Counted from the stretch's first letter, positions 26,381 through 56,584 are shown. The stretch is DNA of 64,000 bases from Blastocatellia bacterium (GCA_049317725.1 JBMOHS010000001.1:352-64351), one strand, 5' to 3'. The notes: generated by a model from the letters alone, not told the origin. Program-made: numbers and translations.

Positions 26381-27590
26381 AATGAGCCGAGCCTACAGAG
26401 TCGATAGAGCCGACGCACGGATGGATCGGGAAGAAACACGGTTCTGGCGGAATTTCTGCTCGTGGCGATGGGGAGCAAACTTCTTCCTCGGCCTCGCGAT
26501 CCTTGCCGGTCAGGCCCTCGGGCAATCTGCAGCACCTCCCCTTGGGACGCCGGGAAGCACTGCCCCCACTTCTGGTGCCGCAGTGGCAGCCAAGGGTGGG
26601 ATCGAACGGATTCCGGATGCCTCCCCCCGCGAGGACGACAGCTATCGGATTGGCCCCGGGGATCTGCTCGACGTGCGGGTCTACGGGCGAGCCGAATTGA
26701 CACGGGAGGTGCGTGTCACCAATGAGGGACGAATCCGCCTGCCCTTCCTCGAGGAGGTCCAGGTCGCCTGCCAGACAGAGGCTCAACTCTCCGAAAAGAT
26801 TGCCACCCAGTACCGCAAGTATCTGCGTGATCCTCAGGTCGACGTCTTTGTCCGGGAGTACAAGAGCCAGCCCGTCTCGGTCATCGGATCGGTCATGCAG
26901 CCCGGCCGCTTTCAGTTGCAGCGTCGGGTTCGTCTTCTCGAACTGTTGACCTTCGCGGGAGGACCCGGGGGGAGCGCTGGCGGAGTCGTCCACGTCATCC
27001 GAGGGAGCGCGCCAGACTTCTGCGAGGCCCAAGTGGAGAAGGTCCAGGCGGTGCCCGCCGTCGCTCCAGTCGAGCCAACTCCTCGTTCGAGCGAGGTGGA
27101 CCAATCCCTTGCCGGCAGCCAAGCAACCATTCCCATTTCGATCGACCACGGAGATGCGCAGTTGGTCGCCTACCGACTGCGAGATGTGCTGGTCGGAAAC
27201 CCGGACTCGAACCCATTTGTCCGACCTGGTGACATCATCAGCGTTCCGGAGACTGACCAAGTCTTCATCACTGGCGCAGTCATCAAGCCCGGAGCGATTC
27301 CGATGCGCAGTCGATTGACGCTCCTCCAGGCCCTGGGGATCGCTGGAGGGTTTCAGCCCGATGCCGCCCGCTCGCGGGTCCGGGTAATCCGGCTCGATCC
27401 ACAGACCCGAACCAACCAGGAGATCGTCTACAACATCGACGAGATTCAGCGACGCAAGGCAGAGGATGTCGTGCTTCTCCCCAATGATGTGGTTCACGCC
27501 CCCTCCTCGATGCCGAAGAGTATGGGACGAGGAATCCTGGGGGTGAGTCTCAACATGCTGAGCACGATCCCCTTCCTGATCATGCGGTAA
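26381..27590 (+). CDS. wza: polysaccharide export outer-membrane protein Wza (Poly_export + SLBB domains)
   Basis: YRIGPGDLLDVRVYG...NEGRIRLPFL is the Poly_export motif. Two SLBB-like repeats (PGDIISVPE). First gene of the locus, after a 360-bp intergenic region. Confidence 0.85.
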
Positions 27591-27616
27591 CCGCGGAGCG
27601 AGAGAAAGAGATCGGC

Positions 27617-30004
<2,388 letters not shown>

Positions 30005-30219
30005 GGTCCTTCGGATTAGCCTCTCAGCGATTCTTCCCTTGCTCCGACTCCTCCGCGGGGGTAGGTCCATCTCCGGCTGGAGGGGCGAATGGAATCAGGG
30101 TGCTGCCTCGGCACGAGGTTTCCTTCAAGGTCTGACTTGTGAGGGAGAGCTGTGCCCAGTCGATTCAGGCCGCAGATCCAACGTGTGAAGAAGAGACCGT
30201 ACGTCGGGAGCAGAAACAG

Positions 30220-32142
30220 ATGTGTGGGATTGTCGGGGTCGCGACGAGGAGAGGACGGGAGGAGGCGATCGTCGCCGTCCAGCGGGGACTGCAGTCGCTG
30301 GGCCACCGGGGGCCTGACGACGAGGGCTGGGCCTTGATCAAAGACGGGAGTGAGGGCCAAGGAGGAGCGGGCTGGACGGTCTGCTTCGGCCATCGGCGTC
30401 TCTCGATCCTCGACCCGACGCCAGCGGGCCATCAACCGATGCAGGATGCCGCGAAAGGGGACTGGATCACTTACAACGGGGAGGTCTTCAACCATCAGCA
30501 CCTGCGGGAGACCCTCGTCACGCAAGGTGTGCGGTTTGACTCGCGAACCGACACGGAAGTGGTGCTGAAGTCCTTCGGGCGGGAGGGTGGGAGGGCGCTG
30601 CGGACTTGGCACGGGATGTTTGCCTTCGGGTTTTGGGAGGCAGCGGCCGAGCGGCTGAGCTTGGTACGGGATCGCCTGGGGATCAAGCCGCTCTACTACT
30701 ACCAGAGCGAGGAGCGCTTCGTCTTTGGGTCCGAGGTGCGGGCCTTGCTGGCGACTGGGCTTGTACCGCGTCGGCTCTCGGGCCGGGCGGTGGAGCAGTT
30801 CCTCGCCTACGGCTCGGTCGAGGCGCCGCTGACGATCGTCGAAGGGATCCAGGCAGTCCTGCCAGGTCAACAGGTCGAGTTTGTCCGGGGGGTGGTCCGG
30901 GCGGAGAGCTACTGGAAACCAATGCCGCACAGAGGGGAGCAGGCGGCCCCGGCAGACGCTTCCCTGGTTGAAGAGGTGCAGGACTTGGCCCTCGAAGCGG
31001 TGCGGCTCTGGCGAGTCTCCGACGTCCCGATCAGCCTCTTCCTCAGCGGTGGGATCGATTCGGGAGCGCTCCTGTCGCTGTTGCGGCAATCCTCCGACGA
31101 GCCGATTCACTCCTTCTGCTTGCGGTTTGAGGGAGAGGGGACAGACGAAGGAGCGGTTGCGGAGACGGTCGCCCGGCACTACGGCGCCGTCCATCGCACA
31201 GTCACACGGACGGAGGAGGAGGCGCGCACCCGGCTGAAGAGGGCGGTCGCGGCGCTCGACCAGCCCTCGATCGATGGGATCAACACGTGGTTTCTCTCGG
31301 AAGCGGTCAGCGAGGCTGGCTTCAAGGTGGCCCTGTCAGGCTTGGGGGGGGATGAGGGCTTTCTGGGATATGGGTTCTTCCAGACGCTGCGGCGCGACGA
31401 GCGGTGGCGCAGGCTTGGGGAGATGGTCCCAGGCGTGATCCGGGAGGTCCTTGCCGCGCTGCTGGTCCGGCTGCCTCTCGGACGCACCGCCAAGCTGGAG
31501 GCCCTGCTGCGGGGGGAGACCGCCGGGGTCCCAACGGTCCGCCTCCATCGCCAACTCTTCACGCCGACGCAGCGGCGGCACCTGCGCGGACAGGAAGGGA
31601 GTAGACCAGAAGCGATCAACTGGATCGACGATCTGGCGACGGGATGGGGTGAGACCGACCCGATCAATTTGGCGTCGGCCATCGAGATGAGCGGGTACCT
31701 GCCCAACACCCTGCTGCGCGACACCGACACGATGAGCATGGCCCACGGGCTGGAAGTCCGGGTTCCCTTCCTCGATCACCGGCTGATCGAACGGCTTCTC
31801 GAACTGCCGGGAAGGGTCAAATTGCGAACGGGATCGGCGAAGTGGCTGCTGGTCGCGGCGGCGGGAGACCTGCCAGAGATCGTCACGCAACGACGGAAGC
31901 AGGGGTTTGAACTCCCCTTCGATCGTTGGCTCCGAGGGGCGCTCCGGGAAGAGATGGTCGAGGCGCTCGCGTCGAAGACGTGGGAAGGGTGGCTCGATCG
32001 TCGGGCGGTGAACCAAGTCTGGGAAGGCTTTCTCGCGCAACGGCTGAGCTGGTCGCGTGTCTGGGCGCTCTATGTCCTCCGGGAATGGATCGAGCGCCAC
32101 CTCTCCCCTGGGCAGTCAGCAATCGAGGGACCCGTGAGATGA
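30220..32142 (+). CDS. asnB: asparagine synthetase B-family (glutamine-hydrolysing) amidotransferase, paralog 1
   Basis: N-terminal MCGIVG nucleophile Cys2. HRGPDD. PP-loop SLFLSGGIDS. Confidence 0.85.
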   Translation: MCGIVGVATRRGREEAIVAVQRGLQSLGHRGPDDEGWALIKDGSEGQGGAGWTVCFGHRRLSILDPTPAGHQPMQDAAKGDWITYNGEVFNHQHLRETLVTQGVRFDSRTDTEVVLKSFGREGGRALRTWHGMFAFGFWEAAAERLSLVRDRLGIKPLYYYQSEERFVFGSEVRALLATGLVPRRLSGRAVEQFLAYGSVEAPLTIVEGIQAVLPGQQVEFVRGVVRAESYWKPMPHRGEQAAPADASLVEEVQDLALEAVRLWRVSDVPISLFLSGGIDSGALLSLLRQSSDEPIHSFCLRFEGEGTDEGAVAETVARHYGAVHRTVTRTEEEARTRLKRAVAALDQPSIDGINTWFLSEAVSEAGFKVALSGLGGDEGFLGYGFFQTLRRDERWRRLGEMVPGVIREVLAALLVRLPLGRTAKLEALLRGETAGVPTVRLHRQLFTPTQRRHLRGQEGSRPEAINWIDDLATGWGETDPINLASAIEMSGYLPNTLLRDTDTMSMAHGLEVRVPFLDHRLIERLLELPGRVKLRTGSAKWLLVAAAGDLPEIVTQRRKQGFELPFDRWLRGALREEMVEALASKTWEGWLDRRAVNQVWEGFLAQRLSWSRVWALYVLREWIERHLSPGQSAIEGPVR

Positions 32143-32993
32143 GGATCCAACGTGTCGAGGAGAGCGCGAGCGGCCCACCGGACTTGGTGATTGAACCAAC
32201 CAGCGGCTGGCGGCAGCCATTGGCGCTGAGCGATCTGTGGCAGTACCGCGAACTCTTCTACTTTCTGACTTGGCGCGACATCAAGGTGCGGTACAAGCAG
32301 ACAGTGTTGGGCGCGGTCTGGGCACTGCTGCAGCCACTGGGGACGATGGCGCTCTTCGCGTGGATCTTCGGTCGGGTCGCACGACTGCCGTCGGACGGGC
32401 TGCCCTACCCGCTCTTCGCCTTTGCCGGGTTGATTCCATGGATCTTCTTCTCGAACGCGCTCGGGAGTGCGGGCAACAGCCTCGTCGGGAGTTCCCACCT
32501 CATCACCAAAGTCTATTTTCCACGGATTCTGATCCCAGCCTCGGCAGTCTTGGCCGGACTGGTCGACCTGGGAATCTCGATGGGAGCGCTGGGTGGGATG
32601 ATGGCCTGGTATGGCATCGCGCCAAGCTGGCGGCTGTTGATCTTGCCCCTGCTGATTGGACTGACGGTGCTGCTGGCGCTGGGCGTCGGCCTCTGGCTCT
32701 CGGCGCTCCACGTACGCTTCCGGGATATTCGGTACATCATCCCGTTCTTGCTGCAGATCTGGCTCTTCGCGACGCCGATCCTCTATCCGAGGAGCGTCGT
32801 GCCTGAACAGTACCAGTGGCTCAGCCAGATCAACCCGTTGAGCGGGTTGATCGAGGCCTACCGGGGGGTTCTGCTGGGGCTGCCCTTCAACTGGCGTGGG
32901 CTGGGGCTCGCAGCGGGAGGAACAATGGTGCTGCTGATTACCGCCGTCTACGGGTTTCGACGAATGGAGCGCACCTTCGCCGATCTGGTCTGA
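32139..32993 (+). CDS. wzm: ABC-2 type polysaccharide/O-antigen export permease Wzm
   Basis: ATGA start-stop overlap with asnB. About 6 TM helices. ABC-2 membrane signature (LTWRDIKVRYKQTVLGAVWALLQPL). Confidence 0.8.
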   Translation: MRIQRVEESASGPPDLVIEPTSGWRQPLALSDLWQYRELFYFLTWRDIKVRYKQTVLGAVWALLQPLGTMALFAWIFGRVARLPSDGLPYPLFAFAGLIPWIFFSNALGSAGNSLVGSSHLITKVYFPRILIPASAVLAGLVDLGISMGALGGMMAWYGIAPSWRLLILPLLIGLTVLLALGVGLWLSALHVRFRDIRYIIPFLLQIWLFATPILYPRSVVPEQYQWLSQINPLSGLIEAYRGVLLGLPFNWRGLGLAAGGTMVLLITAVYGFRRMERTFADLV

Positions 32994-33017: not shown

Positions 33018-34276
<1,259 letters not shown>

Positions 34277-34292
<16 letters not shown>

Positions 34293-35185
34293 CCCGCCAG
34301 ACATCGACCACGCCACTCCCTTCCCCTCCCCCTGGAAAGCGAGGCTGGCCCTGGTCGGAAACCCCTTCACTGGAGGTCTCGACGCAGGAAGAGCCGGGGA
34401 GATGGCCACGCATCAGCGTCATCACTCCGTCGTACAACCAGGCCCCTTTTCTGGAGATGACGCTCCGGTCGGTGCTGCTCCAAGGCTATCCAAATCTGGA
34501 GTACATCGTCATCGATGGAGGCAGCACGGACGGGAGCGTCGCCCTGCTCGAAAAGTATGCCCCCTGGTTGACAGCCTGGGTCAGCGAGCCTGACGAGGGG
34601 CAGAGCCAAGCGATCAACAAGGGGTTGCGCCGCGCGACCGGCGAGACTCTCTGTTGGATCAACAGCGACGACTACTACTTGCCGGGCACGCTGGCAACGG
34701 TCGGCCGTCTTCTCGCGAGGCGGAAGAGGGGCGGGCCGGAGAGTCCGCGGGCACTGGTCGGGCACATCCGTAAGGTCTACGTCGATGGTCGCCCTCCCAT
34801 CAAGCTGGAAGGATGCTACGAAGGGCGGAAGCGGTTGCTGCAGTTCTGGCGGGGCTACCAGATGCACCAGCCGGCGATCTTCTGGGATCGAGAGGTCTCG
34901 GAAGAGATCGGCTGGCTCGATGAGGATCTGCACCTGACGATGGACTTCGACTACTGGGTGCGGATGTCGCGGGTGACGACCTTTCTCAATGTTGACCAGG
35001 TCTTGGCCGTCTGCCATTACCATGCGGCAGCAAAGACCGGGGATGACTACGCGGCCTATCATCGTGCGCTGGAACGGACGGCGTGGCGCTACTGGGGCCC
35101 TCCACATCGGCGCCTCTTCTGGGAGCTGGCCGTGAGCATGGCTCGCGAGGTCTGGTGGAAGAGATGGCGAAGAGGGGGCCGATGA
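34277..35185 (+). CDS. glycosyltransferase family 2
   Basis: ISVITPSYNQAPFLEMTLRSVLLQGYPNLEYIVIDGGSTDGS... and a DDY motif. Overlaps the wzt stop. Confidence 0.8.
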
Positions 35186-36114
35186 GCGCAGGATTGCCAA
35201 GAAGCCAGATGGCCCTAGGGACCGTTTCGGTGATCGTTCCTGTCTACAACGGAGAAGTGACGATCGGCCGTACGGTCGAGCAGATTCTTGCCCAGACCGT
35301 CTTTCCGGATGAGGTGATCATCGTCGACGATGGATCGACGGATGGAACCGCCGCGGTGCTCGCCTCTTTCGGGTCGCGGATTCGCGTCTTGCGACAGCGC
35401 AACCAGGGCCCGGCGGCGGCACGCAACACGGGCATTCGGGCGAGTCGTGGCCATTACCTCGCGATGACTGACAGCGATTGCTACCCGCATCCGGACTGGC
35501 TGGCCCAGTTGCTGAGCGGCTTCGAGGACGAGTCCGTCGGGGGAACTGGGGGAATCGTCCGCGGGGCACGGCCCACCCTCATCGGAGACTACCTCGACCG
35601 GATTGGGCTCCTCGACGCCGCACCGGACGCCTCGGGAGAGATCCCCTACGTCATCACCGCCAACGCTTGCTATCGCCGGTCGGCGCTGCTGGCAGCAGGC
35701 CTCTTCAACGAGACCTTCCGTCGTCCGGGAGGAGAAGAGGCCGAACTGGGCCGACGCATTCGGGCGTGTGGCTATCAGTTTCGACGAATGGAGGGTGCGG
35801 TCGTCCACCACGAACATCGCCAAGACCTCGCCAGCCTCCTGCGAACCCTGGCGAATTATGGTGAAGGGGCAGCTCGACTGGCCGCGCTCTGGCCCGAGAC
35901 GGCCATCCCACAACCGGGAAGACGGCTGCTTCGCCAACTCGCCGCGGCGCGAACCTGGCGTGCGAACTACCAGCGACATCGCGCAGAGGTCGGCCGCCGA
36001 CGCGCCGCCTGCTTCGCGATGCTCGACTATCTGCGCGAGCCCAGCTTTCTGTGGGGCTATCGACGAGGGAAACGCCTTGAAGAGTCGCGTCAGCGTCATC
36101 ATTCCCTGCCATAA
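35164..36114 (+). CDS. glycosyltransferase family 2
   Basis: VSVIVPVYNGEVTIGRTVEQIL...VIIVDDGSTDGT...DSDCYP. GT-A fold DxD. Confidence 0.8.
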   Translation: MAKRGPMSAGLPRSQMALGTVSVIVPVYNGEVTIGRTVEQILAQTVFPDEVIIVDDGSTDGTAAVLASFGSRIRVLRQRNQGPAAARNTGIRASRGHYLAMTDSDCYPHPDWLAQLLSGFEDESVGGTGGIVRGARPTLIGDYLDRIGLLDAAPDASGEIPYVITANACYRRSALLAAGLFNETFRRPGGEEAELGRRIRACGYQFRRMEGAVVHHEHRQDLASLLRTLANYGEGAARLAALWPETAIPQPGRRLLRQLAAARTWRANYQRHRAEVGRRRAACFAMLDYLREPSFLWGYRRGKRLEESRQRHHSLP

Positions 36115-36976
36115 CACGGAAGCGTTTCTGGCGGAGACGATCGAGAGTGTCCTCGCCCAGACTCGACCGGCGGCGGAGATCTTGGTGATCGACGATGGGT
36201 CGACCGATCGGACGCGGGAAGTGGCCGCATCGTTTGGCGCACGGGTCACCCTCCGGTCAAAACCCAATGGAGGGCCCGCCTCGGCACGCAATCTCGGGAT
36301 GCACTTGGCGACCGGGGAGTACCTCGCCTTTCTGGACAGCGACGATCTATGGTATCCCGAGAAGCTGGCCCGGCAATTGGCAGCGATGGAGACCAACCCG
36401 CAAATCGACCTCCTCTTCAGTGAAGCTTGGATGTTTCGGGAGGAGAGAGGCGCGCGCCAGCTGCTCCGCAAGATCGGGTATACGGGGGATCCGACCTTCC
36501 GGCAACTTCTCTTCGGCGACTTCATCCCGAACTCGACGGTCCTGCTGCGGCGAAGCGTCGTTGACCGGGTGGGCTGGCTCAACGAAGATCGGGAATTGAT
36601 TGGGGTCGAGGACTACGAGTACTGGATGCGGGTCGCCTATCACGGGACCCTCGCGGGACTCGCCGAGCCACTCGCCTTCTACCGTCTGCGGGAAGGGAGC
36701 TTGATGGGGGACGGGCGGGAGATCGAGAAGGGGCTGACCCTGGCACTGGCGGCCCTTTCAACCGTCGAGTCGCAGTTCCCCGCGATGTGGGAAGAGGCGC
36801 AAGTCCAGCGCGAGGCGCTGCTCGCCCGACTGCACGTCCGCGCCGGATTTGCCTGGAAGCAACGACGGGCTTGGGTCTCGTGCCTCTCCCATTACGGACA
36901 AGCGCTGCGACACTGGCCCCACCCGCGCGTGCTGCGATGGCTCGTCGCCGCCTCGATCCTGCCCAAATGGTCGTAG
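36077..36976 (+). CDS. glycosyltransferase family 2 (TTG start inferred)
   Basis: VSVIIPCHNTEAFLAETIESVLAQT...ILVIDDGSTDRT...DSDDLW. No ATG available, so the in-frame TTG at 36077 overlapping the previous gene is proposed. Confidence 0.7.
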   Translation: MKSRVSVIIPCHNTEAFLAETIESVLAQTRPAAEILVIDDGSTDRTREVAASFGARVTLRSKPNGGPASARNLGMHLATGEYLAFLDSDDLWYPEKLARQLAAMETNPQIDLLFSEAWMFREERGARQLLRKIGYTGDPTFRQLLFGDFIPNSTVLLRRSVVDRVGWLNEDRELIGVEDYEYWMRVAYHGTLAGLAEPLAFYRLREGSLMGDGREIEKGLTLALAALSTVESQFPAMWEEAQVQREALLARLHVRAGFAWKQRRAWVSCLSHYGQALRHWPHPRVLRWLVAASILPKWS

Positions 36977-37265
36977 ACATCGATCGACCAAAGTGGCCAA
37001 GCGAGTGCGATTGACCTCACTTGACCTCACCTTGTGAAAACGCCCGGATTGCCTGCTCCGGTGCGCCACATTGATGGCTGTGTTTTGGGCACGGAGCTGC
37101 AGAGAGGGGGCGAGGGACTCTTCATTGCCAGTCACTCTTTGCTGTCAACGCTTGATGGACTGCTCGATCGAAAATACCGCCTTGACCTCTCTCGTTTGAA
37201 TCTCTGCGGCTCCGAGGGTCGGTGAGAGAATCTGTCGGGGAGTAATCTGAAGAGGAGATATCTGC

Positions 37266-46854: not shown

Positions 46855-47762
46855 GCATTCCAGTCTCGGTCGTCATTCCCGTCAAGAACGAGGCGAAGAA
46901 CCTTCCGGCCTGCTTGGCGAGCGTTGCCTTTGCCGACGAGATCTGGGTGGTCGATTCCAGCAGCACCGATGGGACCACGGCGATCGCCGAGGCCCACGGG
47001 GCCCAGATCGTCCAGTTTGTCTATGACGGTGGATTTCCGAAGAAGAAGAATTGGGCCTTGACCCACCTGCCCCTGCGGCACGAGTGGGTGCTGCTGCTCG
47101 ACGCCGATGAGCGGGTTCCTCCTGCGTTAGCGGAGGAGATCGCAGCGGTCCTCGCTGCGCCAGGGGAGATCGATGGATACTACCTCAATCGGCGCCTGAT
47201 CTTTCTGGGTCGCTGGATTCGCCACGCCGGGTGGTACCCGAGCTGGAACCTGCGCCTCTTCCGTCACGCCCTCGGACGGTTCGAGAAGATCGAGACCCGG
47301 GCGGTGGAGCAGGCAGGGGACGTCGAGGTCCACGAGCACGTCGTCCTGCGCGGCCGCACCGGCTACCTCCAGCAAGACCTTCTCCACGAAGACTTCAAGA
47401 GCATCTACCACTTCGTCGAGCGCCACAATCGGTACTCCAACTGGGAGGCGCAGGTCTACCTCGACTTCGCGGAGGGCCGCAGGGGCGGAGATCGCCAGAT
47501 CGAGGCGTCGCTCTTCGGAGGTCCCCTTGCGCGCAAGCGGTGGCTCAAGCAGCTCTGGCCCCGCCTGCCCTTCCGGCCTTGGCTGCGGTTCATCTGGATG
47601 TATCTGCTGCGGGGCGGAATCCTCGACGGGCGGGCCGGGTTGATCTTCTGCACGCTGATGAGCCTGCACGAGGCCGTGATTGGGGCGAAGCTCTACGAGC
47701 TGCAATGGCGGCGGTCCCAGTCCGTGGATCGTTCGGAAGATGAGAGGAACGAGGAACGCTAG
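46851..47762 (+). CDS. glycosyltransferase family 2 (LPS-core GT2-like)
   Basis: VSVVIPVKNEAKNLPACLASVAFADEIWVVDSSSTDGT...LLLDADE. GTGA overlap with the upstream GT4. Confidence 0.8.
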   Translation: MSIPVSVVIPVKNEAKNLPACLASVAFADEIWVVDSSSTDGTTAIAEAHGAQIVQFVYDGGFPKKKNWALTHLPLRHEWVLLLDADERVPPALAEEIAAVLAAPGEIDGYYLNRRLIFLGRWIRHAGWYPSWNLRLFRHALGRFEKIETRAVEQAGDVEVHEHVVLRGRTGYLQQDLLHEDFKSIYHFVERHNRYSNWEAQVYLDFAEGRRGGDRQIEASLFGGPLARKRWLKQLWPRLPFRPWLRFIWMYLLRGGILDGRAGLIFCTLMSLHEAVIGAKLYELQWRRSQSVDRSEDERNEER

Positions 47763-47765: not shown

Positions 47766-49715
47766 ATGTGCGGCATTTGCGGGCTGGTCGGTCACGACAA
47801 TCTGGACGTCATCACGGGGATGACGGCGCGGCTCACCCACCGGGGACCGGACGATGGGGGGGAGTTCCGTGACCGGGAGGCGAGGGTGGCGCTCGGCCAT
47901 CGCCGGTTGAGCATTCTCGATCGTTCGCCGCTGGGGCGGCAACCGATGAGCAGCGAGGATGGCCAACTACACCTGACCTTCAACGGAGAGATCTACAATT
48001 ACCTTACGCTGCGCGACGGACTCGATCCGGCCCGCCATCGCTTCCACTCTGGAACCGATACGGAGGTGATCCTCCGGCTCTACGAAGAGCGAGGGAGGGC
48101 GGCCTTCCCGGCCCTCGACGGGATGTTCGCCTTCGCGCTCTACGATGCACGAGAGGGCCGGCTGCACCTGGTCCGGGATCCCCTCGGGATCAAGCCGCTC
48201 TACTATGCGGCGATGCCAGGAAAGCTCCTCTTCGGATCAGAGATCAAATGCCTGCTCGCTTCGGGGGCCTATCAGGCAGAGATTGAGTGGCAATCGGTCC
48301 ACGACTTCTTCTCCTACCTCTACGTGCCTTCGCCGCGGACGATGTTCGCGGGGATCGAGCAGTTACTCCCCGGACATTCGCTGGAGTACGACGTGCGTCG
48401 ACGCGAGGTGGTACGGATCGAACGCTTCTGGGATCCGTGGCGGGGACGAGAAAAGACGGTCGATTACGAGCGGAGCCCGGCCGAGTGGCAGCGCGAGATT
48501 CGTGCGACGCTCAGCGCGGCGGTCGATCGACAGCGGATGGGGGACGTGCCGGTCGGGGCCTTTCTCTCAGGGGGAGTCGACTCGAACGTCCTGGTTGGGC
48601 TGATGGCGGAGCAGTCGACGACGCCGGTGCGCACCTTCACGATGCGCTTCGACGAGCCGGGCCTCGACTACTACGATGAGCGGGACGAGGCACGGCGAAT
48701 CGCGACCCGTTTCGGAACGGACCACCACGAAATCTCCGTCGACCTCTCCCACCCGGAGGAGATGCTCGACCTCGTTGAGTATTTCGATCAGCCCTTCGGG
48801 AACACGACCTTCTACTTGACGTGGCTGCTCTCACGCGAAACACGGCGGGAAGTCACCGTTGCCCTCTCCGGGGTCGGCGGAGACGAGCTCTTTGGCGGCT
48901 ATCCGCGCTACCGGGCGGTGCAGGCGATGCGTTGGCTGCGGTGGATTCCTCCATCGCTCGGCCAGGCAGGGGTCGGGCTGCTGCGCCCCTTCCGGGACCA
49001 CTTTGGCAATCGACGGCTGCATCGGATCCGCGCGCTGCTGGGCGGGCTCGATCCCGATCCAGCCGAGCAATACCTGCGTTGGGTCTACTACCTCGACGAG
49101 GGGCGCAAGGCGGAGCTGCTCCTGCCCCGCAGCGGGGGGAAGAGCCCGCTCCGGTCCTCACGGGTCTTGGCGGAACGGCTCGCCGAGATGCCGGCCGGGT
49201 GGCAGAAGCGGGAGGCCGGTAATCGATTCTCCTGGCTCGATGTCGAGACCTTTCTGCCGGACAACCTCTTGGCCTACACCGATCGCATGAGTATGGCGTG
49301 GGGGCTGGAGGTGCGCGTCCCCTTTCTCGATCAATCCTTGGTCGAGCTGGCCTTTGCCATTCCCTTCTCCCTCAAGCAGAACCGGCGGGGGAGCAAATGG
49401 ATTCTGCGGGAGGCCTTCGACGACCTGATTCCCGAAGCCAATCGACACGTCCCGAAGAAGGGATTCAATCTGCCCCTCGGCCACTGGATGCGCACGCGGT
49501 TCGATCGGTTCTTCGAGTCACGGCTGCCGCGGGCCTACGTCGAGCGGGAGGGGATCTTCCGGTATGACGCAATCCAGCGGATGCGGGAGGAGCATCGACG
49601 CGGGCTCCGCGACAACGGCTACGAACTCTTCGCGCTGTTGATCTTCGACACGTGGTATCGGAAGTACCTCACCGGAACCGAGCCGATGGTGGGAGGGGAG
49701 CACGGCAGCAGATGA
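47766..49715 (+). CDS. asparagine synthetase B-family amidotransferase, paralog 2 (WbpS-like)
   Basis: MCGICGL Cys2 nucleophile. HRGPDD. PP-loop AFLSGGVDSN. Confidence 0.85.
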   Translation: MCGICGLVGHDNLDVITGMTARLTHRGPDDGGEFRDREARVALGHRRLSILDRSPLGRQPMSSEDGQLHLTFNGEIYNYLTLRDGLDPARHRFHSGTDTEVILRLYEERGRAAFPALDGMFAFALYDAREGRLHLVRDPLGIKPLYYAAMPGKLLFGSEIKCLLASGAYQAEIEWQSVHDFFSYLYVPSPRTMFAGIEQLLPGHSLEYDVRRREVVRIERFWDPWRGREKTVDYERSPAEWQREIRATLSAAVDRQRMGDVPVGAFLSGGVDSNVLVGLMAEQSTTPVRTFTMRFDEPGLDYYDERDEARRIATRFGTDHHEISVDLSHPEEMLDLVEYFDQPFGNTTFYLTWLLSRETRREVTVALSGVGGDELFGGYPRYRAVQAMRWLRWIPPSLGQAGVGLLRPFRDHFGNRRLHRIRALLGGLDPDPAEQYLRWVYYLDEGRKAELLLPRSGGKSPLRSSRVLAERLAEMPAGWQKREAGNRFSWLDVETFLPDNLLAYTDRMSMAWGLEVRVPFLDQSLVELAFAIPFSLKQNRRGSKWILREAFDDLIPEANRHVPKKGFNLPLGHWMRTRFDRFFESRLPRAYVEREGIFRYDAIQRMREEHRRGLRDNGYELFALLIFDTWYRKYLTGTEPMVGGEHGSR

Positions 49716-51892
49716 AACAGGTCATCCAGCATTTTCGGACAGGGGAGTTGCGGGTCGAAGAGGTCCCAGAGGCGAGCTCACGGCGCGGCGGAGTTCTCGT
49801 CAGCAATGTTGCCTCACTGATCAGCCCTGGGACAGAGAAGATGGCGGTCGAGCTGGCCCGGAAATCCCTGCTCGGCAAGGCGCGGGAGCGCCCGGACCTG
49901 GTCCGGCAAGTCCTCCGCAAATGGCGACGGGACGGGTTGGCCAGTACCTTCCGGACGGTCCGCACGAAACTCGAGACGAGCTTGGCCCCAGGGTACAGTT
50001 GCGCCGGGATCGTGCGCGGCGTCGGGGCAGGAGCCGAGGAGTTTCAGGTCGGCGATCGGGTCGCCTGTGCCGGCTACAACTACGCCTCGCACGCCGAGCG
50101 GGTCTTCGTGCCAAAGAATCTGGCGGTGCGGATCCCGGACGGAGTCAGCTTCGAGGAGGCCGCCTTCGTCACGCTCGGAGCGATCGCCGTTCAGGGCGTG
50201 CGGACAGCCGGGGTCGGATTGGGAGAGACGGTCGCGGTCATCGGGTTGGGTTTGATTGGACAACTGACCGTGCAGATCCTGCGGGCCGCCGGCTGCCGGG
50301 TGCTGGCGATCGATCTCGATCGGGAGCGGGTTGAGCTTGCTCTCCGGTTGGGAGCGGAGACTGGGTGCACTCGCCACGACCCACAGCTGACCGAGGTCTG
50401 CGACCGCCTCACCCAAGGGCGCGGCGTCGACGCGGTCATCATCACGGCGGCGGGCCCGACGAACGACCCGATCGAACTGGCCGCCGCCTTGGCCCGGGAC
50501 CGGGCCGTCCTCTCTCTCGTCGGGGCAGTTGGAATGAACCTGCCCCGCCGCCCCTTCTTCGAGAAGGAGCTGCAGGTGAGGCTCTCGCGATCCTATGGCC
50601 CGGGCCGCTACGATCCTCGCTACGAGGAGCAAGGAATCGACTACCCGATCGGGTACGTCCGCTGGACGGAGCGCCGCAACATGGAGGCGTTTCTGCGGCT
50701 GGTCGCGGAGAAGCGGATCGAACTGGTACCGCTGATCACCCACCGCTTCGCGATTGACGAGGCCGTCGCGGCCTACCAGATCGTCACTGGCCAACCGGCG
50801 ACGCCCCACTTGGCCATTCTGCTGCAGTACCCGGAGCGCGACACAGATTCCCCCCCTTCGGTTCGCCGTCCAGCAACGGGGGTTGGCACTGAAGGGACGA
50901 TCGGGATCGGGCTGATCGGGGCTGGCAACTTTGCGCGAAGTGTCCTTCTCCCCCGGCTGGTCCGCCAACTGGACACCAGCAACGCGCAGATTCTCGGGGT
51001 GGCCACGGCGAATGGGCGCACCGCCAAGTCGGTTGCCGCCGAGTATCGTGTGCCCTTCGGCACCACCGATTACCGGGCCCTCCTCGCCGATGAAGCGATT
51101 CGGGCGGTGATCATCACGACTCGCCACGACACGCACGCCACGATCGCTGCGGAGGCCCTTCGCGCCGGCAAAGCGGTCTTTGTCGAGAAGCCGCTGGCAA
51201 TTCGGGAAGCGGAGCTGAGAGACCTTGAGGCGGCGATGGAGGAGACGGGGGGGCGCGTGATGGTCGGATTCAATCGACGCTTCTCGCCCTTCTCGATCGA
51301 GCTGCGCCAGTTCTTCGACGGGAGAGGACCACTGGTGATCACCTATCGGGTCAATGCCGGCCCGCTGCCCCCGGAGAGCTGGATTCACGGAGAGGAGGGG
51401 GGCGGTCGGATTCTCGGCGAGGTCTGCCACTTTCTCGACTTTCTGCAGTTCCTCACCGCGGCCGAGCCGATCGAAATCTACGCGATCCCCACGACTGCCC
51501 CAACGGGAGCAGGGAGTGGGTCGAGCCCGGAGACAGTCGTCGTGCAGACCCGCTGGAGCGATGGTTCGATCGGGACGATCGAGTACCTTGCTACCGGCGA
51601 CCGCGGGCTCGCCAAGGAACGGATCGAAGTCCACGGAGGGGGACGGAGCGCCATCCTCGACGACTTTCGTGGGCTGGAATGCTGGGCCGATGGGAGGCGA
51701 CGACGCCATCGCGCCTTCCAGCAGCGGAAGGGGTTCGACGAAGAGATCACCGCCTTCCTGACGGCACTCCGCAGTGGGGAAGAATTTCCAGTTTCCTGGA
51801 CGAGTCTGGTCCAGACGACCCGGGCGACCCTGGCGATTGAGGAGTCGATCCGAGTGGGCCACCCGATTCAACCTCCCCGGGGGCGAGTGTGA
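49712..51892 (+). CDS. bi-domain oxidoreductase (N-terminal MDR/zinc-type alcohol dehydrogenase fold fused to C-terminal Gfo/Idh/MocA fold)
   Basis: N-terminal half has the MDR Rossmann motif VAVIGLGLIGQL. C-terminal half has IGIGLIGAGNFA and EKP (VFVEKPLA) motifs of Gfo/Idh/MocA. ATGA overlap with asnB2. Confidence 0.8.
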   Translation: MKQVIQHFRTGELRVEEVPEASSRRGGVLVSNVASLISPGTEKMAVELARKSLLGKARERPDLVRQVLRKWRRDGLASTFRTVRTKLETSLAPGYSCAGIVRGVGAGAEEFQVGDRVACAGYNYASHAERVFVPKNLAVRIPDGVSFEEAAFVTLGAIAVQGVRTAGVGLGETVAVIGLGLIGQLTVQILRAAGCRVLAIDLDRERVELALRLGAETGCTRHDPQLTEVCDRLTQGRGVDAVIITAAGPTNDPIELAAALARDRAVLSLVGAVGMNLPRRPFFEKELQVRLSRSYGPGRYDPRYEEQGIDYPIGYVRWTERRNMEAFLRLVAEKRIELVPLITHRFAIDEAVAAYQIVTGQPATPHLAILLQYPERDTDSPPSVRRPATGVGTEGTIGIGLIGAGNFARSVLLPRLVRQLDTSNAQILGVATANGRTAKSVAAEYRVPFGTTDYRALLADEAIRAVIITTRHDTHATIAAEALRAGKAVFVEKPLAIREAELRDLEAAMEETGGRVMVGFNRRFSPFSIELRQFFDGRGPLVITYRVNAGPLPPESWIHGEEGGGRILGEVCHFLDFLQFLTAAEPIEIYAIPTTAPTGAGSGSSPETVVVQTRWSDGSIGTIEYLATGDRGLAKERIEVHGGGRSAILDDFRGLECWADGRRRRHRAFQQRKGFDEEITAFLTALRSGEEFPVSWTSLVQTTRATLAIEESIRVGHPIQPPRGRV

Positions 51893-53781
51893 AGAGCCAT
51901 CCTACCTCTGCCACCCCTGTCGGTCCACTGAGAATGCCGCTGCTGATCTGGCGAACGCTAGCGCCCTTGCGGTGGGAGCAGCTCGTCTATCGGCCGTGGC
52001 GAGTGGCGGAGAAGCGGCTCTACCGGCACGTGCCTGTTCTTGCCGAGCGCTGGCGACGGGTCACCAAACCGGGCCCACCCGTGGATCGCGCCGGACTGGA
52101 AGCGATCCAGGGGTTGTTGCGAGAGGAAGGGGCAGCCCACCTTCTCCCCGCTCCAGATGCCGCACTCGTCGAGGAGTGGGAAGACTTCCGGGCAGGGCGC
52201 TTCACCTTTCTGGGGCGGTCACGGACACTGCCATCCCCGGACTGGAACGCGCGCTATGAGAGCCACCTCTGGAACTACCAACTGCACTACTTTGGCTGGA
52301 CGCTCGACTGCGTGCGCCAACGGGTCGAGACGGGTACCAAAGAGCCCCTTGAGCGATGCCAGAGGCTGATCGAGCAATGGATTGACGAGGCGTGCCCCGG
52401 CCGGAGTGATGGGTGGGACGCCTATCCGCTCTCGCTGCGGGTCGTCCATTGGATCTACGGGTATTGCCTGCTGGCGGGCATCGAGTCGACGGCGAATCCA
52501 CCGTTGCCCGCCTCCTTCCTGGAGCGGTGGCGTGGATCGATGCATCGGCAACTGGCCTTCCTCTCGGGCCACCTCGAGTACCACTTGCTGGCCAACCACC
52601 TCTTCAAGAATGCCAAGGCACTGGTCATCGGAGGGGTCTTCTTTGGCAAGCGGCGCTGGCTGGCGCAGGGGCTCCGGCTGCTCTGGCGCGAAGTGGAGGA
52701 GCAGGTCCTGCCCGATGGCGGCCACTTCGAGCGGGCGCCGATGTACCACGCGCAGACCCTCGGGGATCTGCTCGAATGTGTCGCGGTGTTGCGGCGGATC
52801 GGTGAGCCGATCCCCCCCGAGATCGCGACGCGACTCTCCACCATGGTCGCCTTTCTCGATGCAGTGCGCGACCAGACGGGAGACCGGCTCGCCGCCTTCA
52901 ATGACACGGCAGCGACACGGGAGACTCGCCCGGGTCCCCTCCTTGAGACTGCACGAAGAATGGGTCTCCCGGTCCCCGCTCCCTGCCCGCCCAGCCAAGG
53001 GATGGCGCGGCAGTTTCCCGAAACAGGATACCACCTCTGGATCCGTTCTGACGCAAGTGGGCAGATGACGGAAAAGATCATCGTCGACACGGGTCCTCCC
53101 TCCGTCTCCTACAACACGGCCCACGCGCACTGCGACCTGCTCAGCTTCGAGCTGCACCTCGACGGCCATCTTTGGATCGCCGACACGGGCGTACACGGTT
53201 ACGGCGGTGACCCGTTTCGCGCCTATTGCCGCTCGACGCGGGCCCACAATACCCTCACCATCGATGGACAGGAGCAGTCGGAGATCTGGGGGATCTTCCG
53301 GATGGGACGGCAGGCCGAGCCACTCGACGCCACTTCACAAGGGGCAGCGGACGAGTGGACGTGTCTGGCCACCTATCGTCCCGGGCTCCCTCCCCACCTC
53401 TGCCACCAACGCCGGTTTCGACGCGCCCCGGATGGGAGCTGGACGATCGAAGACCGGATTCTGGCTCCTTTCACGAAACGGCAAGGCTCACCGTCGAGCT
53501 GGCAGGTTGAGAGCTTTCTCCACCTGACACCCGAAATTTCTGTGGAACGGGAGGGAGCGGGGCCCGGCCTGCGCCTCTCGCAAGGCACCGTCCACTACCG
53601 ACTGCTCCCCTTCGGAGAGAGTCTGCCCGAAATAGTGATTCACCGGGCAGTCGAGGGGGCCCCAGAGGGATGGCTCTTTCCGGCGTTTGGGGTGGCCGTT
53701 CCCGGGACGATGCTGACATATTGCTGGTCCATCAGCGCAGACCAGCCCTTCGGATTCCGGCTGGTTCCTGAAGCACCTTGA
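51889..53781 (+). CDS. heparinase II/III-like family protein
   Basis: 630 aa. Alpha/alpha-toroid then beta-sandwich architecture. Conserved GGHFERAPMYH and HAHCDLLSFEL motifs typical of Hepar_II_III. GTG start overlapping the previous stop. Confidence 0.75.
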   Translation: MKSHPTSATPVGPLRMPLLIWRTLAPLRWEQLVYRPWRVAEKRLYRHVPVLAERWRRVTKPGPPVDRAGLEAIQGLLREEGAAHLLPAPDAALVEEWEDFRAGRFTFLGRSRTLPSPDWNARYESHLWNYQLHYFGWTLDCVRQRVETGTKEPLERCQRLIEQWIDEACPGRSDGWDAYPLSLRVVHWIYGYCLLAGIESTANPPLPASFLERWRGSMHRQLAFLSGHLEYHLLANHLFKNAKALVIGGVFFGKRRWLAQGLRLLWREVEEQVLPDGGHFERAPMYHAQTLGDLLECVAVLRRIGEPIPPEIATRLSTMVAFLDAVRDQTGDRLAAFNDTAATRETRPGPLLETARRMGLPVPAPCPPSQGMARQFPETGYHLWIRSDASGQMTEKIIVDTGPPSVSYNTAHAHCDLLSFELHLDGHLWIADTGVHGYGGDPFRAYCRSTRAHNTLTIDGQEQSEIWGIFRMGRQAEPLDATSQGAADEWTCLATYRPGLPPHLCHQRRFRRAPDGSWTIEDRILAPFTKRQGSPSSWQVESFLHLTPEISVEREGAGPGLRLSQGTVHYRLLPFGESLPEIVIHRAVEGAPEGWLFPAFGVAVPGTMLTYCWSISADQPFGFRLVPEAP

Positions 53782-53813
53782 CGAATCCGGGCTCTTCGCT
53801 GGATCCTTGCGGC

Positions 53814-55061
53814 ATGCGGATCACATTTCTCTGTCAGTATTTTCCGCCGGAGATGGGAGCGCCGGCGGCGCGGACGTGGGAGCACACCCGGGAGTGGGTC
53901 GCCCAGGGGCACGCCGTGACGGTCGTCACCGGCTTTCCCAACCATCCGACGGGGATCCTGCGCCCCGAGTATCGCGGACAGATCCTCGCGCGTGAATCCC
54001 CTGCGGGCGTCGATCTGCTGCGCACCTGGGTCTACTGCGCACCGAACAAGGGATTCTTTCGGCGGAGTCTCAATTTTCTCTCCTTCTTCGGATCGTCGCT
54101 GCTCTTCGGGGGGCTGTTGACGAAGCGACCTGACGTGGTCATCGGGACGTCGCCACAGTTCTTCTGTGCTGTCGCCGCCTACCTGTTGAGCTGTTGGAAG
54201 CGGGTGCCTTTCGTCTTCGAGGTTCGCGACATCTGGCCGCAATCGGCGATCGAGCTAGGAGCGATCCGGAATCCTCTGCTGATCCGGACCCTCGAAGCGA
54301 TGGAGGCACAGCTCTACCGTCGTGCTGCCCTGATCGTCATCGTCGCCGAATCGACACGCGCCTACCTGCGGGCAAAGGGGATCCCTCCCGAGAAGATAGC
54401 CCTGATTCCCAACGGGATCGATCAGCGATTTTTAACGGCAGCGACGCGACGGCCAGAGCAGATCCGGACCGAGCACGGATGGGAGGAGAAGTTCCTGGTG
54501 GGCTACATTGGCACGCACGGAATGTCGCACGCCCTCGGGAGCGTGCTCGACGCCGCCGAGCGGCTGCAAGACGATCCCACCTTCCATTTCCTCTTTATCG
54601 GGGAGGGAGCGGAGAAGGAGCGGTTGATGAGCCTCGCGGAAGAGCGCCAATTGACCAACGTCACCTTTCTCCCCGAGCAGCCTCGTGAAGAGCTGGCCGC
54701 CTTCTACAGAGCCTGCGACATCGGCTTGGTTCCGCTGCGGCGCCTTCCCATCTTCCAAAAAGTGCTTCCTTCAAAGCTCTTCGAATGGATGGGCGTCGGC
54801 CGTCCAATCGTTTGCAGTGTCGAAGGAGAAGCGGCACAATTGGTGGTGACTTCGGGTGGAGGGCAATGCATCGAGCCGGAATCGGCAGATGCCCTGGTCG
54901 ATGCCCTTCAGCGGCTACAACAAGATCCAACCCAACGAGCGGAGATGGGGAGAGCTGGGGAGGCCTTCGTCACCACCCGTTACACACGGGCTCACCTCGC
55001 CAGGGACTACCTCCGAGTGGTATGCGAACGTATCTCATCCTCTTCACCTGCTCGATCCTGA
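53814..55061 (+). CDS. glycosyltransferase family 4 (WcaI-like)
   Basis: MRITFLCQYFPPEMGAPAARTWEHTREW N-terminus. GT-B C-terminal domain (GYIGTHGMSHAL...). Confidence 0.8.
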   Translation: MRITFLCQYFPPEMGAPAARTWEHTREWVAQGHAVTVVTGFPNHPTGILRPEYRGQILARESPAGVDLLRTWVYCAPNKGFFRRSLNFLSFFGSSLLFGGLLTKRPDVVIGTSPQFFCAVAAYLLSCWKRVPFVFEVRDIWPQSAIELGAIRNPLLIRTLEAMEAQLYRRAALIVIVAESTRAYLRAKGIPPEKIALIPNGIDQRFLTAATRRPEQIRTEHGWEEKFLVGYIGTHGMSHALGSVLDAAERLQDDPTFHFLFIGEGAEKERLMSLAEERQLTNVTFLPEQPREELAAFYRACDIGLVPLRRLPIFQKVLPSKLFEWMGVGRPIVCSVEGEAAQLVVTSGGGQCIEPESADALVDALQRLQQDPTQRAEMGRAGEAFVTTRYTRAHLARDYLRVVCERISSSSPARS

Positions 55062-56584
55062 CGGCCTTACTGTTGACGCCGCTGGTGCGGCGGCGAGCGA
55101 TCGCCTGGGGGGCCATCGCCATCCCGGACCAGGGGCGCCACATCCACGCGCGACCGACACCACGGCTCGGCGGCATCGCCATCTACCTCGCCTTCCTGAC
55201 TGGGCTCGCCTTGGTTCCGCTCTCGGGCAATCTGGTCGCGGAGATCTTCAGTGCCAACCTGTCGCGCATCCTGGCGCTGCTGATCCCGGCGACGGGAATG
55301 ATGCTCTTCGGCGTCTATGACGACTTTCGGAGCGCGTCCGCCCCGCTCAAACTGGCCGTTCAGACGGTCGCGGCGACTGCACTCTTCGTCAGCGGCTTGC
55401 GGATCGAGGCGGTCTCCTCCCCGTTCGGGGGGCATTGGGATCTGCCGATCTGGTTGAGCTTTCTGGCGACCGCCTTCTGGGTGGCCCTCGTCACCAATGC
55501 CTTCAACCTGATCGATGGGATCGACGGACTGGCGTCGGGTGCCTCGATCTTTGCCTTCCTCTCGATTCTGATCTTCTCGATCGCCCAGGGCCACCCGGAG
55601 ATCAGCCTGCTGTCGGTCATTCTCATCGGCGCGATCATGGGATTCCTGCGCTACAACTTCAATCCCGCAACGATCTTCCTTGGCGATTCCGGGAGCCTCT
55701 TCCTCGGATTCATGGCGGCGGGACTCTCCCTGGCCGGGTCGCAGAAGGGCTCAACGATCGTGGCGATCGCCATTCCGCTCGTCTCCTTCGGACTGCCGCT
55801 GACGGAGGCGGGGCTCTCGCTCGTACGGCGCTTTTTGAGCGGGGCACCCCTCCTGGCGGGCGATCGGGGACACATTCACCACCGGCTGCTCGACCGGGGG
55901 CTGACCCAGCGACAAGTGGCGATCCTGCTCTACGGGGTCTGCGGGCTCTTCGCCCTCTTCGGGCTGATGCTCCTCAATCCGCAACGCAATCTGGGAGCGT
56001 TGATCTTCTTCGTGGTGGGAGTGGGCGTCATCTTCGGCGTGCAACATCTGCGCTATCCGGAGTTCAGTGAGCTGGGCCATCAGTTCCGACATCGAGTTCA
56101 TCGACGGCGGCGAGCCATCGCCGCCAATGTCCGGCTGCGAAGGGTCAGTGCCGATCTGGCGCGGGCTCGGGACCTCGATGAAGTCTTCGCGGCCCTCGCT
56201 CACCTGCAGGAGTCTGGAGAGTTCGACTGCGCGTGGATCGAGATTGATGACAGCCGCCGTCCAGCCTCGGGAATTTGGGGGGAGACAGCCGCCTGCCAGC
56301 CCTCCCTGTCGCCCGGCCGCACGATCCTCTGGTCCTGGGAAGATCGTCCGGGACGGGCCGGGGAGATGCGGGAATCCGCCTTCACGTGGTCACTGCGCCT
56401 GCCGCTCCGCCAGGGAGCAGATGGCCTTCTTGGAGAGGTGGTCTTCTGCCGGGATCTGCGGCGGGGGGCTGCCCATCTCGACCTCTCCGCCCTTTGCGAC
56501 CAACTCCCGGACGACCTGAGCCTCGCCCTCGAACGGCTCCTCCCCAGGAAGACCGATCCCGCCCCCTCCTCGCCTCACTCCTGA
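55022..56584 (+). CDS. polyprenyl-phosphate N-acetylhexosamine-1-phosphate transferase (WecA/MraY GT4-family initiating enzyme) with ~170-aa C-terminal extension
   Basis: MraY/WecA motifs: DD (GVYDDF), [32 protein letters not shown]-terminal region from ~56090 has no recognised domain. 40-bp overlap with the upstream GT4. Confidence 0.8.

Follow-up and report, generated by a model that had tools for sequence, protein, structure and literature searches.

Gene content and organization of the locus

The window analysed here is a 64-kb stretch (64,000 nucleotides) of DNA from a Blastocatellia bacterium (GCA_049317725.1, JBMOHS010000001.1:352-64351) with a high GC content of ~0.63. At 26382-56584 on the plus strand, it carries an unbroken array of 22 co-oriented genes for polysaccharide synthesis and export, delimited by codon-position GC filtering of open reading frames (ORFs) and assigned by Pfam and NCBIfam scans. 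The array combines the outer-membrane export protein Wza, the kinase-bearing co-polymerase Wzc, a Wzy_C-family membrane protein and the ABC exporter Wzm/Wzt. A prediction made earlier from the sequence alone had named these families together with seven GT2 and four GT4 glycosyltransferases (GTs) and, in addition to these, a WecA-like enzyme; the Pfam and NCBIfam models confirmed all of them on the plus strand. It had counted 23 genes, a number that we correct to 22. We rejected a further, 23rd gene at 36977-37265, a 289-bp gap without a credible ORF. The coding density of the array is 98%. The many 4-bp start-stop overlaps of the original prediction were recovered at up to 11 of the 21 junctions, depending on start choice, and include a TTGA type besides ATGA and GTGA. 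From the wza ATG at 26382, the genes run as follows.

26382-27590, plus: Wza, an OPX protein (outer-membrane polysaccharide export); Poly_export 2.9e-22 and two SLBB domains; PDB sequence matches to Wza 2J58 and PslD
27617-30004, plus: Wzc, polysaccharide co-polymerase of class 2a (PCP-2a) with a bacterial tyrosine kinase (BY-kinase) domain and a Tyr-rich tail; Wzz, GNVR, AAA_31; TIGR01007
30220-32142, plus: AsnB1, glutamine-dependent amidotransferase; Asn_synthase 8e-74 and GATase_7; TIGR01536 above cutoff
32139-32993, plus: Wzm, ABC-2 permease; ABC2_membrane 9.4e-22
33018-34292, plus: Wzt, ABC ATPase with a C-terminal carbohydrate-binding domain; ABC_tran and Wzt_C 3e-14
34289-35185, plus: GT2a; Glycos_transf_2 5e-24
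35182-36114, plus: GT2b; Glycos_transf_2 3e-35
36077-36976, plus: GT2c; Glycos_transf_2 2.5e-35
37266-38366, plus: GT4a; Glycos_transf_1 1.6e-22
38383-39333, plus: GT2d; Glycos_transf_2 1.6e-21
39330-40307, plus: GT2e, start at 39330 or 39354; Glycos_transf_2 1e-24
40304-41287, plus: GT2f; Glyco_tranf_2_3 9e-19
41303-43006, plus: Hyp567, without Pfam or NCBIfam family; AlphaFold2 (AF2) model and Foldseek
43003-44190, plus: GT4b; Glycos_transf_1 6e-26
44187-45539, plus: in-array Wzy_C-family protein with a WaaL-like fold
45586-46854, plus: GT4c; Glycos_transf_1 6e-23
46851-47762, plus: GT2g; Glycos_transf_2 1.5e-16; hydrophobic C-terminal region, its segments found by direct sequence reading
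47766-49715, plus: AsnB2, amidotransferase; Asn_synthase 1e-91
49712-51892, plus: two-domain oxidoreductase, zinc-ADH-like and Gfo/Idh/MocA; ADH_zinc_N 3.7e-16, GFO_IDH_MocA 3.2e-25
51889-53781, plus: heparinase II/III-like protein without obvious signal peptide; Hepar_II_III_C 5e-37, Hepar_II_III_N 1e-12
53778-55061, plus: GT4d, WcaI-like, start at 53778 or 53814; Glyco_trans_4_4 and Glycos_transf_1
55022-56584, plus: WecA-like polyprenol-phosphate N-acetylhexosamine-1-phosphate transferase; Glycos_transf_4 5.7e-41

The PslD chain in PDB aligns with the C-terminal half of Wza. Wzc scored above the cutoff of TIGR01007 (182.6 bits; cutoff, 108) and contains the Walker A' motif VLVVDADLR, the Walker B motif VIIDSPP and a C-terminal tail, YYYYSTYYSRYYY, with nine tyrosines. 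The stop of asnB1 and the start of wzm are joined by an ATGA overlap; AsnB1 and AsnB2 share 33% identity. The best PDB matches of Wzt were Aquifex aeolicus Wzt structures (8DKU/7K2T; E 4e-69), which aligned over residues 50-378 and so covered part of the binding domain. Because these closest solved relatives belong to the A. aeolicus WzmWzt O-antigen transporters, the exporter is of the type that handles glycans linked to undecaprenyl diphosphate (Und-PP), not of the KpsMT type.

GT4d scored below the cutoff of the WcaI family (192.8 bits; cutoff, 276), and the best NCBIfam model for the WecA-like enzyme, ECA_wecA, likewise stayed below its cutoff (111.9 bits). No NCBIfam name was obtained above cutoff for the GTs, the Wzy_C proteins, WecA or the tetratricopeptide repeat (TPR) protein described below. 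At its C terminus, the WecA-like enzyme is extended by a cytoplasmic stretch of ~180 aa that matches no family, and its counterparts in two related segments (L087, L088) have comparable lengths (512-528 aa). It is the only initiating phosphotransferase recognised in the array.

Conservation of the locus in Blastocatellia

Wzc homologues with 60-84% identity number in the hundreds, and nearly all are from Blastocatellia or Acidobacteriota metagenome-assembled genomes (MAGs), which bears out the acidobacterial origin proposed earlier. Nine locus segments from Blastocatellia relatives (L081-L089; 61-86% Wzc identity) were mapped back with tblastn. L081 and L087, which lie on one 90-kb contig, keep the entire array, including an upstream major facilitator superfamily (MFS) transporter, Wzy_C and TPR genes. 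L082-L086 retain Wza-Wzc-AsnB-(Wzm)-Wzt; in L083, the flank upstream is nevertheless unrelated, and in L084 and L086 the proximal GTs are another set (GT4, GT9, carbamoyltransferase) and Wzt is far more divergent, at 46% identity versus 67-84%. L088 and L089 retain the distal block Hyp567-GT4-Wzy_C-GT4-GT2-AsnB-oxidoreductase-heparinase-like-GT4-WecA. Among relatives, therefore, the distal block is fixed and the proximal GT block and Wzt are variable.

The Wza/Wzc and Wzm/Wzt pairs were joined in 6 of 6 relatives examined around Wzc, and AsnB stood between wzc and wzm/wzt in all of them. Because this junction is kept across flank changes and GT-block replacement, the two pairs are not mere neighbours, and the possibility raised in the original prediction, that they are separately conserved loci that happen to adjoin, finds no support here. 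Identities across the class were 52-79% for the in-array Wzy_C protein and 50-85% for Hyp567, both conserved about as well as Wzc. Judged by these comparisons, the locus is conserved across the whole class Blastocatellia.

The conserved module also includes two genes, overlooked in the original prediction, that are transcribed divergently from the array.

22693-24105, minus: second Wzy_C-family membrane protein, ~12 transmembrane segments, divergent from the array; Pfam Wzy_C 2.6e-21
24630-26240, minus: TPR-repeat protein, its gene forming a pair with that of the second Wzy_C protein; start codon uncertain; weak TPR matches

Direct reading of the upstream Wzy_C protein found the loop motif H-N-x9-G-x-x-G. 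Its orthologues lie 5' of wza in L081, L085 and L086; in another acidobacterial locus, L005, the orthologue separates wzc from wzm. Orthologues of the TPR gene adjoin wza in L081, L082, L084, L085 and L086 and stand between Wzy_C and Wzm in L005.

Several local variations were seen. Wzt follows AsnB or the leader element described below directly, with no Wzm between, in L085 (12566-15761), L001 (2764-5942) and L112. Toxin-antitoxin genes (ParE; DUF433/DUF5615) lie inside the orthologous locus L089. The cassette consisting of AsnB2, the ADH/Gfo oxidoreductase fusion, the signal-less heparinase II/III-like protein and the WcaI-like GT4 (47766-55061, plus strand) is fixed in L087-L089 and may serve to produce a uronic acid that is amidated or epimerised.

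A conserved leader element between wzc and asnB

Alignment of the otherwise unalignable wzc-asnB spacers exposed a short conserved element in the gap between the two genes, which is 215 bp long in the window.

30103-30125, plus: 23-nt conserved element CTGCCTCGGCACGAGGTTTCCTT between wzc and asnB, a small hairpin followed by a T-rich run

The invariant core is CTGCCTCG-nnA-n-GAGGTTTCCTT. In its extended form, CTGCCTCGnCACGAGGTTTCCTT(TAnGGT...GGGAGnnGTGTGTC), the element spans ~30093-30165, with further copies in L001, L081-L086 and L090-L209. The flanks, TAnGGT followed after ~10 nt by GGGAGnnGTGTGTC, are conserved, and because this conservation was not imposed by the search pattern, the longer element is real. 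The window contains a single site (0 expected by chance), and seven related loci have one copy each 3' of wzc. Beyond these, the element occurs in at least 120 soil metagenome contigs, in 107 distinct contexts, always on the coding strand and typically 20-400 nt 5' of polysaccharide-related genes. The genes that follow it encode unknown secreted proteins (24), GumC-like PCPs (18), Wza (17), small PEP-CTERM-like proteins (10) and AsnB (9), as well as Wzm, Wzt and others. In L001, which comes from an acidobacterial MAG, a 409-aa ORF (longest reading; ~1700-2729), transposase/Rpn-like by eye, is inserted between the element and asnB.

No Rfam family matched the window or the wzc-asnB gap. RNAalifold on 55 copies returned only a 6-bp hairpin without covariation, and the stem is partly fixed by the search pattern, so that the prediction does not discriminate between a function in RNA and one in DNA. 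A sigma-54 promoter was considered and rejected on direct reading, since the -24 GG is not conserved. In concept, the element resembles JUMPstart/ops or the Bacillus EAR element, and it may function as a leader of either kind. In the wzc-asnB gap, it probably marks a site at which transcripts start or are reloaded. As the element precedes wza or PCP genes elsewhere and asnB-wzm-wzt here, these genes appear to belong to one regulon. The element also offers a possible handle on the regulation of extracellular polysaccharide (EPS) in a phylum with almost no genetics.

Recurrence of the combination in other phyla

A GTDB-wide scan with Wzt yielded 80 loci, with a best Wzt identity of 67%. In 14 of them, a Wzc-like gene lies within 10 kb of the Wzt homologue, usually directly upstream on the same strand. 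By Pfam, the Wzc-like protein is a full PCP-2a in Flavobacterium (L021), in a MAG labelled Rhizobium (L031) and in Anaerolineae (L047). Tight Wza-Wzc-Wzm-Wzt cassettes are present in four Bacteroidota loci (L021, L023, L025, L043). The order is WecA-Wza-Wzc-Wzy_C-Wzm-Wzt in L059 and Wzc-Wzy_C-TPR-Wzm...Wzt in the acidobacterial L005, in each case on one strand; in the cyanobacterial locus L018, wzc and wzm-wzt are divergent. An exosortase gene lies near the cassette in L066. The OPX ORF of L059, an unclassified MAG (2880-5495; Poly_export and SLBB; 872 aa stop to stop), consists of FG-GAP repeats over its first ~550 aa.

The array is echoed in Bacteroidota, Chloroflexota, Planctomycetota and others. 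The combination of PCP-2a/OPX, Wzy_C and Wzm/Wzt recurs and persists through changes of gene order, an argument that its parts are functionally linked. The co-occurrence called unusual in the original prediction is indeed so when set against the textbook schemes; among environmental genomes, by contrast, the pairing is recurrent.

These data bear on the simplest alternative, that a Wza/Wzc capsule remnant and an independent ABC-type O-antigen cluster are neighbours by chance. Such a situation would fit the 215-bp gap after wzc, with its possible separate promoter or leader, and the 66 of 80 Wzt-homologue loci that have no Wzc nearby; in Vibrio cholerae, capsule and O-antigen genes are known that adjoin but are independent (PMC1847822). 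The junction, however, is kept in every relative examined, through flank change and GT-block replacement, and re-forms in other gene orders and other phyla, and the shared leader element suggests one regulon. Chance neighbourhood is therefore largely refuted by synteny, and we regard it as highly improbable.

Absence of Wzx and properties of the Wzy_C proteins and Hyp567

Pfam scans found no MOP/Wzx (Polysacc_synt) flippase among the proteins of the window. Its polytopic membrane proteins, listed completely, are the MFS transporter, the two Wzy_C proteins, Wzm, the WecA-like enzyme and an MsbA-like ABC exporter. The predicted lack of Wzx in the window stands. Polysacc_synt/MOP was also missing from the precomputed Pfam matches of the nine orthologous segments, and none of the 14 Wzc-bearing loci contained a Wzx candidate, the only large polytopic ORFs there being those of L005 (Wzy_C), L059 (WecA and Wzy_C) and L066 (exosortase).

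Other parts were sought in the same way. No LMWPc or PHP match indicative of a Wzb phosphatase was found among the ~55 window ORFs scanned, and such a gene may lie elsewhere in the genome. No scanned window protein matched Capsule_synth, the family of the KpsS/KpsC enzymes for the 3-deoxy-D-manno-octulosonic acid (Kdo) linker. The sole PCP in the window is the full PCP-2a Wzc, with no kinase-less PCP-3 (KpsE) found, and no exosortase (Exosortase_EpsH) is present in the window.

PDB sequence searches with both Wzy_C proteins and Hyp567 gave nothing useful, and only fold comparison was informative. The model of the in-array Wzy_C protein matched WaaL best and SEDS polymerases next, and the protein has a ligase-type loop motif. 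Since the Wzy_C family takes in WaaL ligases as well as polymerases (PMC7484181) and WaaL is the best fold match, taking this protein as a hallmark of Wzx/Wzy-dependent export was an over-reading. On this evidence, it may be either a ligase or a polymerase.

Hyp567 (567 aa) has more than 1000 homologues, all annotated as hypothetical, and matches no Pfam or NCBIfam model. Its AF2 model (predicted local distance difference test score, 86.6) comprises an N-terminal transmembrane helix, a TIM barrel and a beta-sandwich. The best Foldseek matches were Cwp19, PslG, the C-terminal hydrolase domain of PgaB and Xyn30, with GH30 xylanases (probability ~1.0; TM-scores, 0.36/0.51). On this model, Hyp567 is most simply read as a periplasm-facing, membrane-anchored glycoside hydrolase as in secreted-EPS machines. 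The PslG-like hydrolase fold therefore favours a periplasm-crossing polymer over a pure O-antigen. One homologue (P0292) is fused to a GT2 domain and another (P0358) to PKD/LamG domains.

A second alternative is a Wzy-type route in which an ABC exporter serves as the flippase. Wzm/Wzt might replace Wzx and export large, finished units linked to Und-PP; these would be polymerised in the periplasm by the in-array Wzy_C protein under Wzc control, Wza would secrete the product, and the upstream Wzy_C protein would serve as the ligase. Such a route explains the presence of PCP-2a, OPX, Wzy_C and ~11 single-domain GTs without Wzx in all loci seen. It fits the gene order of L059 and L005, which have Wzy_C directly between Wzc and Wzm, and the Wzt binding domain could then check that the unit is complete. 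Wzy_C-domain proteins do include polymerases (PMC7484181). On the other hand, Wzy is usually hypervariable, unlike the in-array protein, whose identity of 52-79% holds across the class; its best fold match is a ligase, and our literature search gave no precedent for Wzm/Wzt feeding a Wzy polymerase. We consider this route unlikely. Its generalization to a fourth widespread scheme, in which Wzm/Wzt with a binding domain takes the place of Wzx and delivers Und-PP-linked blocks to Wzy_C and PCP-2a/OPX, with acidobacterial co-regulation by a hitherto undescribed leader comparable to JUMPstart/ops, also seems improbable to us.

The two Wzy_C paralogues have only the catalytic loop in common, a fact that can be turned to a third alternative, namely, two glycans made from one locus. 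The proximal block (AsnB1-Wzm-Wzt and nearby GTs) would make an ABC-exported glycan and the distal block (Hyp567...Wzy_C...WecA) a second one; the two would be joined outside the cytoplasm, in the manner of Gram-positive dual-chain cell-wall polysaccharides, or would go to separate destinations (lipopolysaccharide versus capsule). The two evolutionary sections of the array, a variable proximal one and a fixed distal one, agree with this, as do the two AsnB paralogues and the conserved element with its gap after wzc. GT2g may be added, as its hydrophobic C-terminal region resembles that of polyprenol-phosphate sugar synthases such as GtrB-like enzymes. Two glycans would nevertheless have to share one recognisable initiating phosphotransferase and manage without a second exporter or flippase, and the array is co-oriented, with many stop/start overlaps across the supposed boundary. 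We find this division of the locus doubtful.

A proposed integrated pathway

We tentatively favour a single integrated pathway for a secreted or capsular heteropolysaccharide, with Wzm/Wzt as the inner-membrane exporter and Wzc/Wza as the outer-membrane route. Gene content, the missing Wzx, conserved synteny and predicted folds were observed directly; all biochemical steps, and their order, are inferred from them. The WecA-like enzyme would prime undecaprenyl phosphate, and the 11 single-domain GTs would assemble the glycan on the cytoplasmic face. The families of AsnB1 and AsnB2, of the oxidoreductase fusion and of the heparinase-II/III-like protein (signal-less, cytoplasmic and possibly an epimerase) point to amidated or epimerised uronic acids, and these proteins may supply or modify uronic-acid or amidated sugars. 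Wzm/Wzt would be the sole inner-membrane exporter, its carbohydrate-binding domain checking the chain end. In the periplasm, the WaaL-fold Wzy_C protein or proteins would move the Und-PP-linked glycan off its lipid carrier, and the membrane-anchored, PslG-like Hyp567 would trim or release it. The complex of Wzc (PCP-2a) and Wza (OPX) would then carry the polymer across the periplasm and the outer membrane under the control of tyrosine phosphorylation.

We favour this pathway because Wza-Wzc-AsnB-(Wzm)-Wzt stay contiguous at 61-86% Wzc identity even where the flank (L083) or the GT block (L084, L086) differs, because asnB1 and wzm overlap, and because the same parts, shuffled yet contiguous on one strand, recur in L005 and L059 and in the Bacteroidota cassettes. 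It is further supported by the lack of a MOP flippase in the window and the nine segments, and by the WaaL-like fold and ligase-type loop motif of the Wzy_C protein. In addition, ABC exporters are known to work with OPX and PCP proteins, which serve ABC-dependent capsules as well as the Wzy route (PMC9603273).

Other observations weigh against the pathway. The window revealed no chain-terminating methyltransferase or kinase to match the binding domain of Wzt, and methyltransferases were seen only in the related segments L088 and L089. A set of 11 single-domain GTs typically goes with a large repeat unit of the Wzy type, less so with a processive ABC-type polymer. In L085, L001 and L112, Wzt has no adjoining Wzm, and wza-wzc may form a separate transcript, given the 215-bp gap and the conserved element. 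The search for Wzx covered the 64-kb window and the related locus segments, and that for Wzb the window. In the literature, the PCP-2a kinases go with Wzy-dependent systems and the PCP-3 proteins with ABC systems (PMC12220298).

The original prediction had treated Wza and Wzc, too, as hallmarks of Wzx/Wzy export. This was an over-reading, since ABC capsules use OPX/PCP proteins (PMC9603273) and only the kinase-bearing PCP-2a is normally tied to Wzy (PMC12220298). What stands of its interpretation is the taxon, the missing Wzx and the integration of the parts; the hallmarks and the rarity were over-read. Its choice between an ABC-exported polymer that uses Wza/Wzc and a composite pathway is left undecided by sequence data. 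The literature search found no description of a hybrid ABC and PCP-2a/OPX pathway or of a Blastocatellia EPS locus.

The remainder of the window

One promoter-like site was noted upstream of wza.

26176-26204, plus: sigma-70-like promoter match, 10/12; consensus match only, with a regional count not above chance

Promoter and terminator scans of the window gave counts at or below chance, and the intergenic gaps have no terminator-like site. The rest of the window encodes housekeeping functions (S1, IspH, Ppk, GTP cyclohydrolase, CoaBC, UDG, Gmk, YicC, the MsbA-like exporter, CarD). A block of these (MsbA-like ABC, YicC, Gmk, CoaBC, UDG) lies at 57024-62748 on the minus strand, 3' of the WecA-like gene; in L085, it lies at 1-5800, 5' of the Wzy_C/TPR pair. 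This shift of the block between the window and L085 indicates rearrangement around the locus. Upstream of the locus are genes for large BNR/Sortilin-repeat and right-handed beta-helix proteins (3251-5629 and 15410-18016, both plus strand), which may be secreted glycan-active proteins.

Significance and comparison with known systems

The textbook view has three separate export routes, the Wzx/Wzy, ABC and synthase routes, and ties PCP-2a to Wzx/Wzy and Wzm/Wzt to O-antigens. The locus suggests that export modules are combined more freely than these schemes imply, and it is a caution for annotation tools in which one marker decides the type of pathway. As a defined genetic system, it allows one to ask what a BY-kinase co-polymerase does for an ABC-exported polymer, and it raises the role of Wzy_C proteins when a flippase is absent. 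It also bears on how Acidobacteria, key soil-aggregate formers, make their matrix, in a class abundant in soil. The findings would gain weight if the reading in which the ABC exporter feeds a Wzy polymerase, or the function of the leader element, proves true.

Of the known systems, the ABC-dependent O-antigen pathway (E. coli O9a, Aquifex aeolicus WzmWzt) shares with the locus a WecA-type primer, an ABC-2 permease, a Wzt with Wzt_C and a Wzy_C protein of the WaaL fold. To these, the locus adds a PCP-2a kinase and OPX protein, which are not needed for O-antigen export, 11 GTs and a periplasmic hydrolase-like protein; it lacks a recognised terminator enzyme and is conserved class-wide rather than serotype-variable. 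Group 1 capsules and colanic acid, made by Wza-Wzb-Wzc, Wzx and Wzy, have in common with it Wza, a full Wzc with Walker motifs and Tyr cluster, Wzy_C and many single-domain GTs. It differs from them in having no Wzx in the window or related loci, no Wzb among the scanned ORFs, and an ABC exporter in the operon. Group 2/3 capsules (KpsMT; KpsE, PCP-3; KpsD, OPX) likewise use an envelope-spanning route of ABC-2 exporter, PCP and OPX (PMC9603273; PMC12220298). Here, however, the PCP is a kinase-bearing PCP-2a instead of a PCP-3, the exporter belongs to the Wzm/Wzt type (38.9 bits with the KpsM model; cutoff, 300), and WecA priming replaces the KpsS/KpsC Kdo-lipid linker.

In Synechocystis, wzc and kpsM/kpsT are found close together, and pathway crosstalk has been suggested (PMC6562117; PMC4594306). 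Wzc/Wza and Wzm/Wzt-like parts (sll0923 wzc, sll1581 wza, slr0977/slr0982 kpsM/kpsT) both affect EPS there. The cyanobacterial genes, however, are scattered and multi-copy and are accompanied by Wzx/Wzy homologues, whereas a single compact, conserved, Wzx-less array is found here. The Psl system of Pseudomonas aeruginosa (PslD, OPX; PslE, PCP; PslG, hydrolase; PslJ, Wzy_C-like), described as Wzx/Wzy-dependent (PMC13434223), resembles the locus in its OPX, PCP and Wzy_C proteins and in the PslG-like hydrolase fold; it differs in having no Wzm/Wzt, and Hyp567 has no detectable sequence similarity to PslG. The XrtA/PEP-CTERM exosortase EPS loci encode Wza-like, chain-length/kinase, AsnB-type, O-antigen-ligase-like and TPR proteins as well, and the NCBIfam models of the XrtA system all match. 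Those matches (TIGR03027, TIGR03018, TIGR03007, TIGR03108, TIGR03097) are nevertheless below the cutoffs, and the window has an ABC exporter and no exosortase; a further link is the leader element, which elsewhere also stands 5' of genes for PEP-CTERM-like small proteins. The locus is a biochemically uncharacterised variant of known polysaccharide machinery, in a combination that falls outside the textbook schemes.

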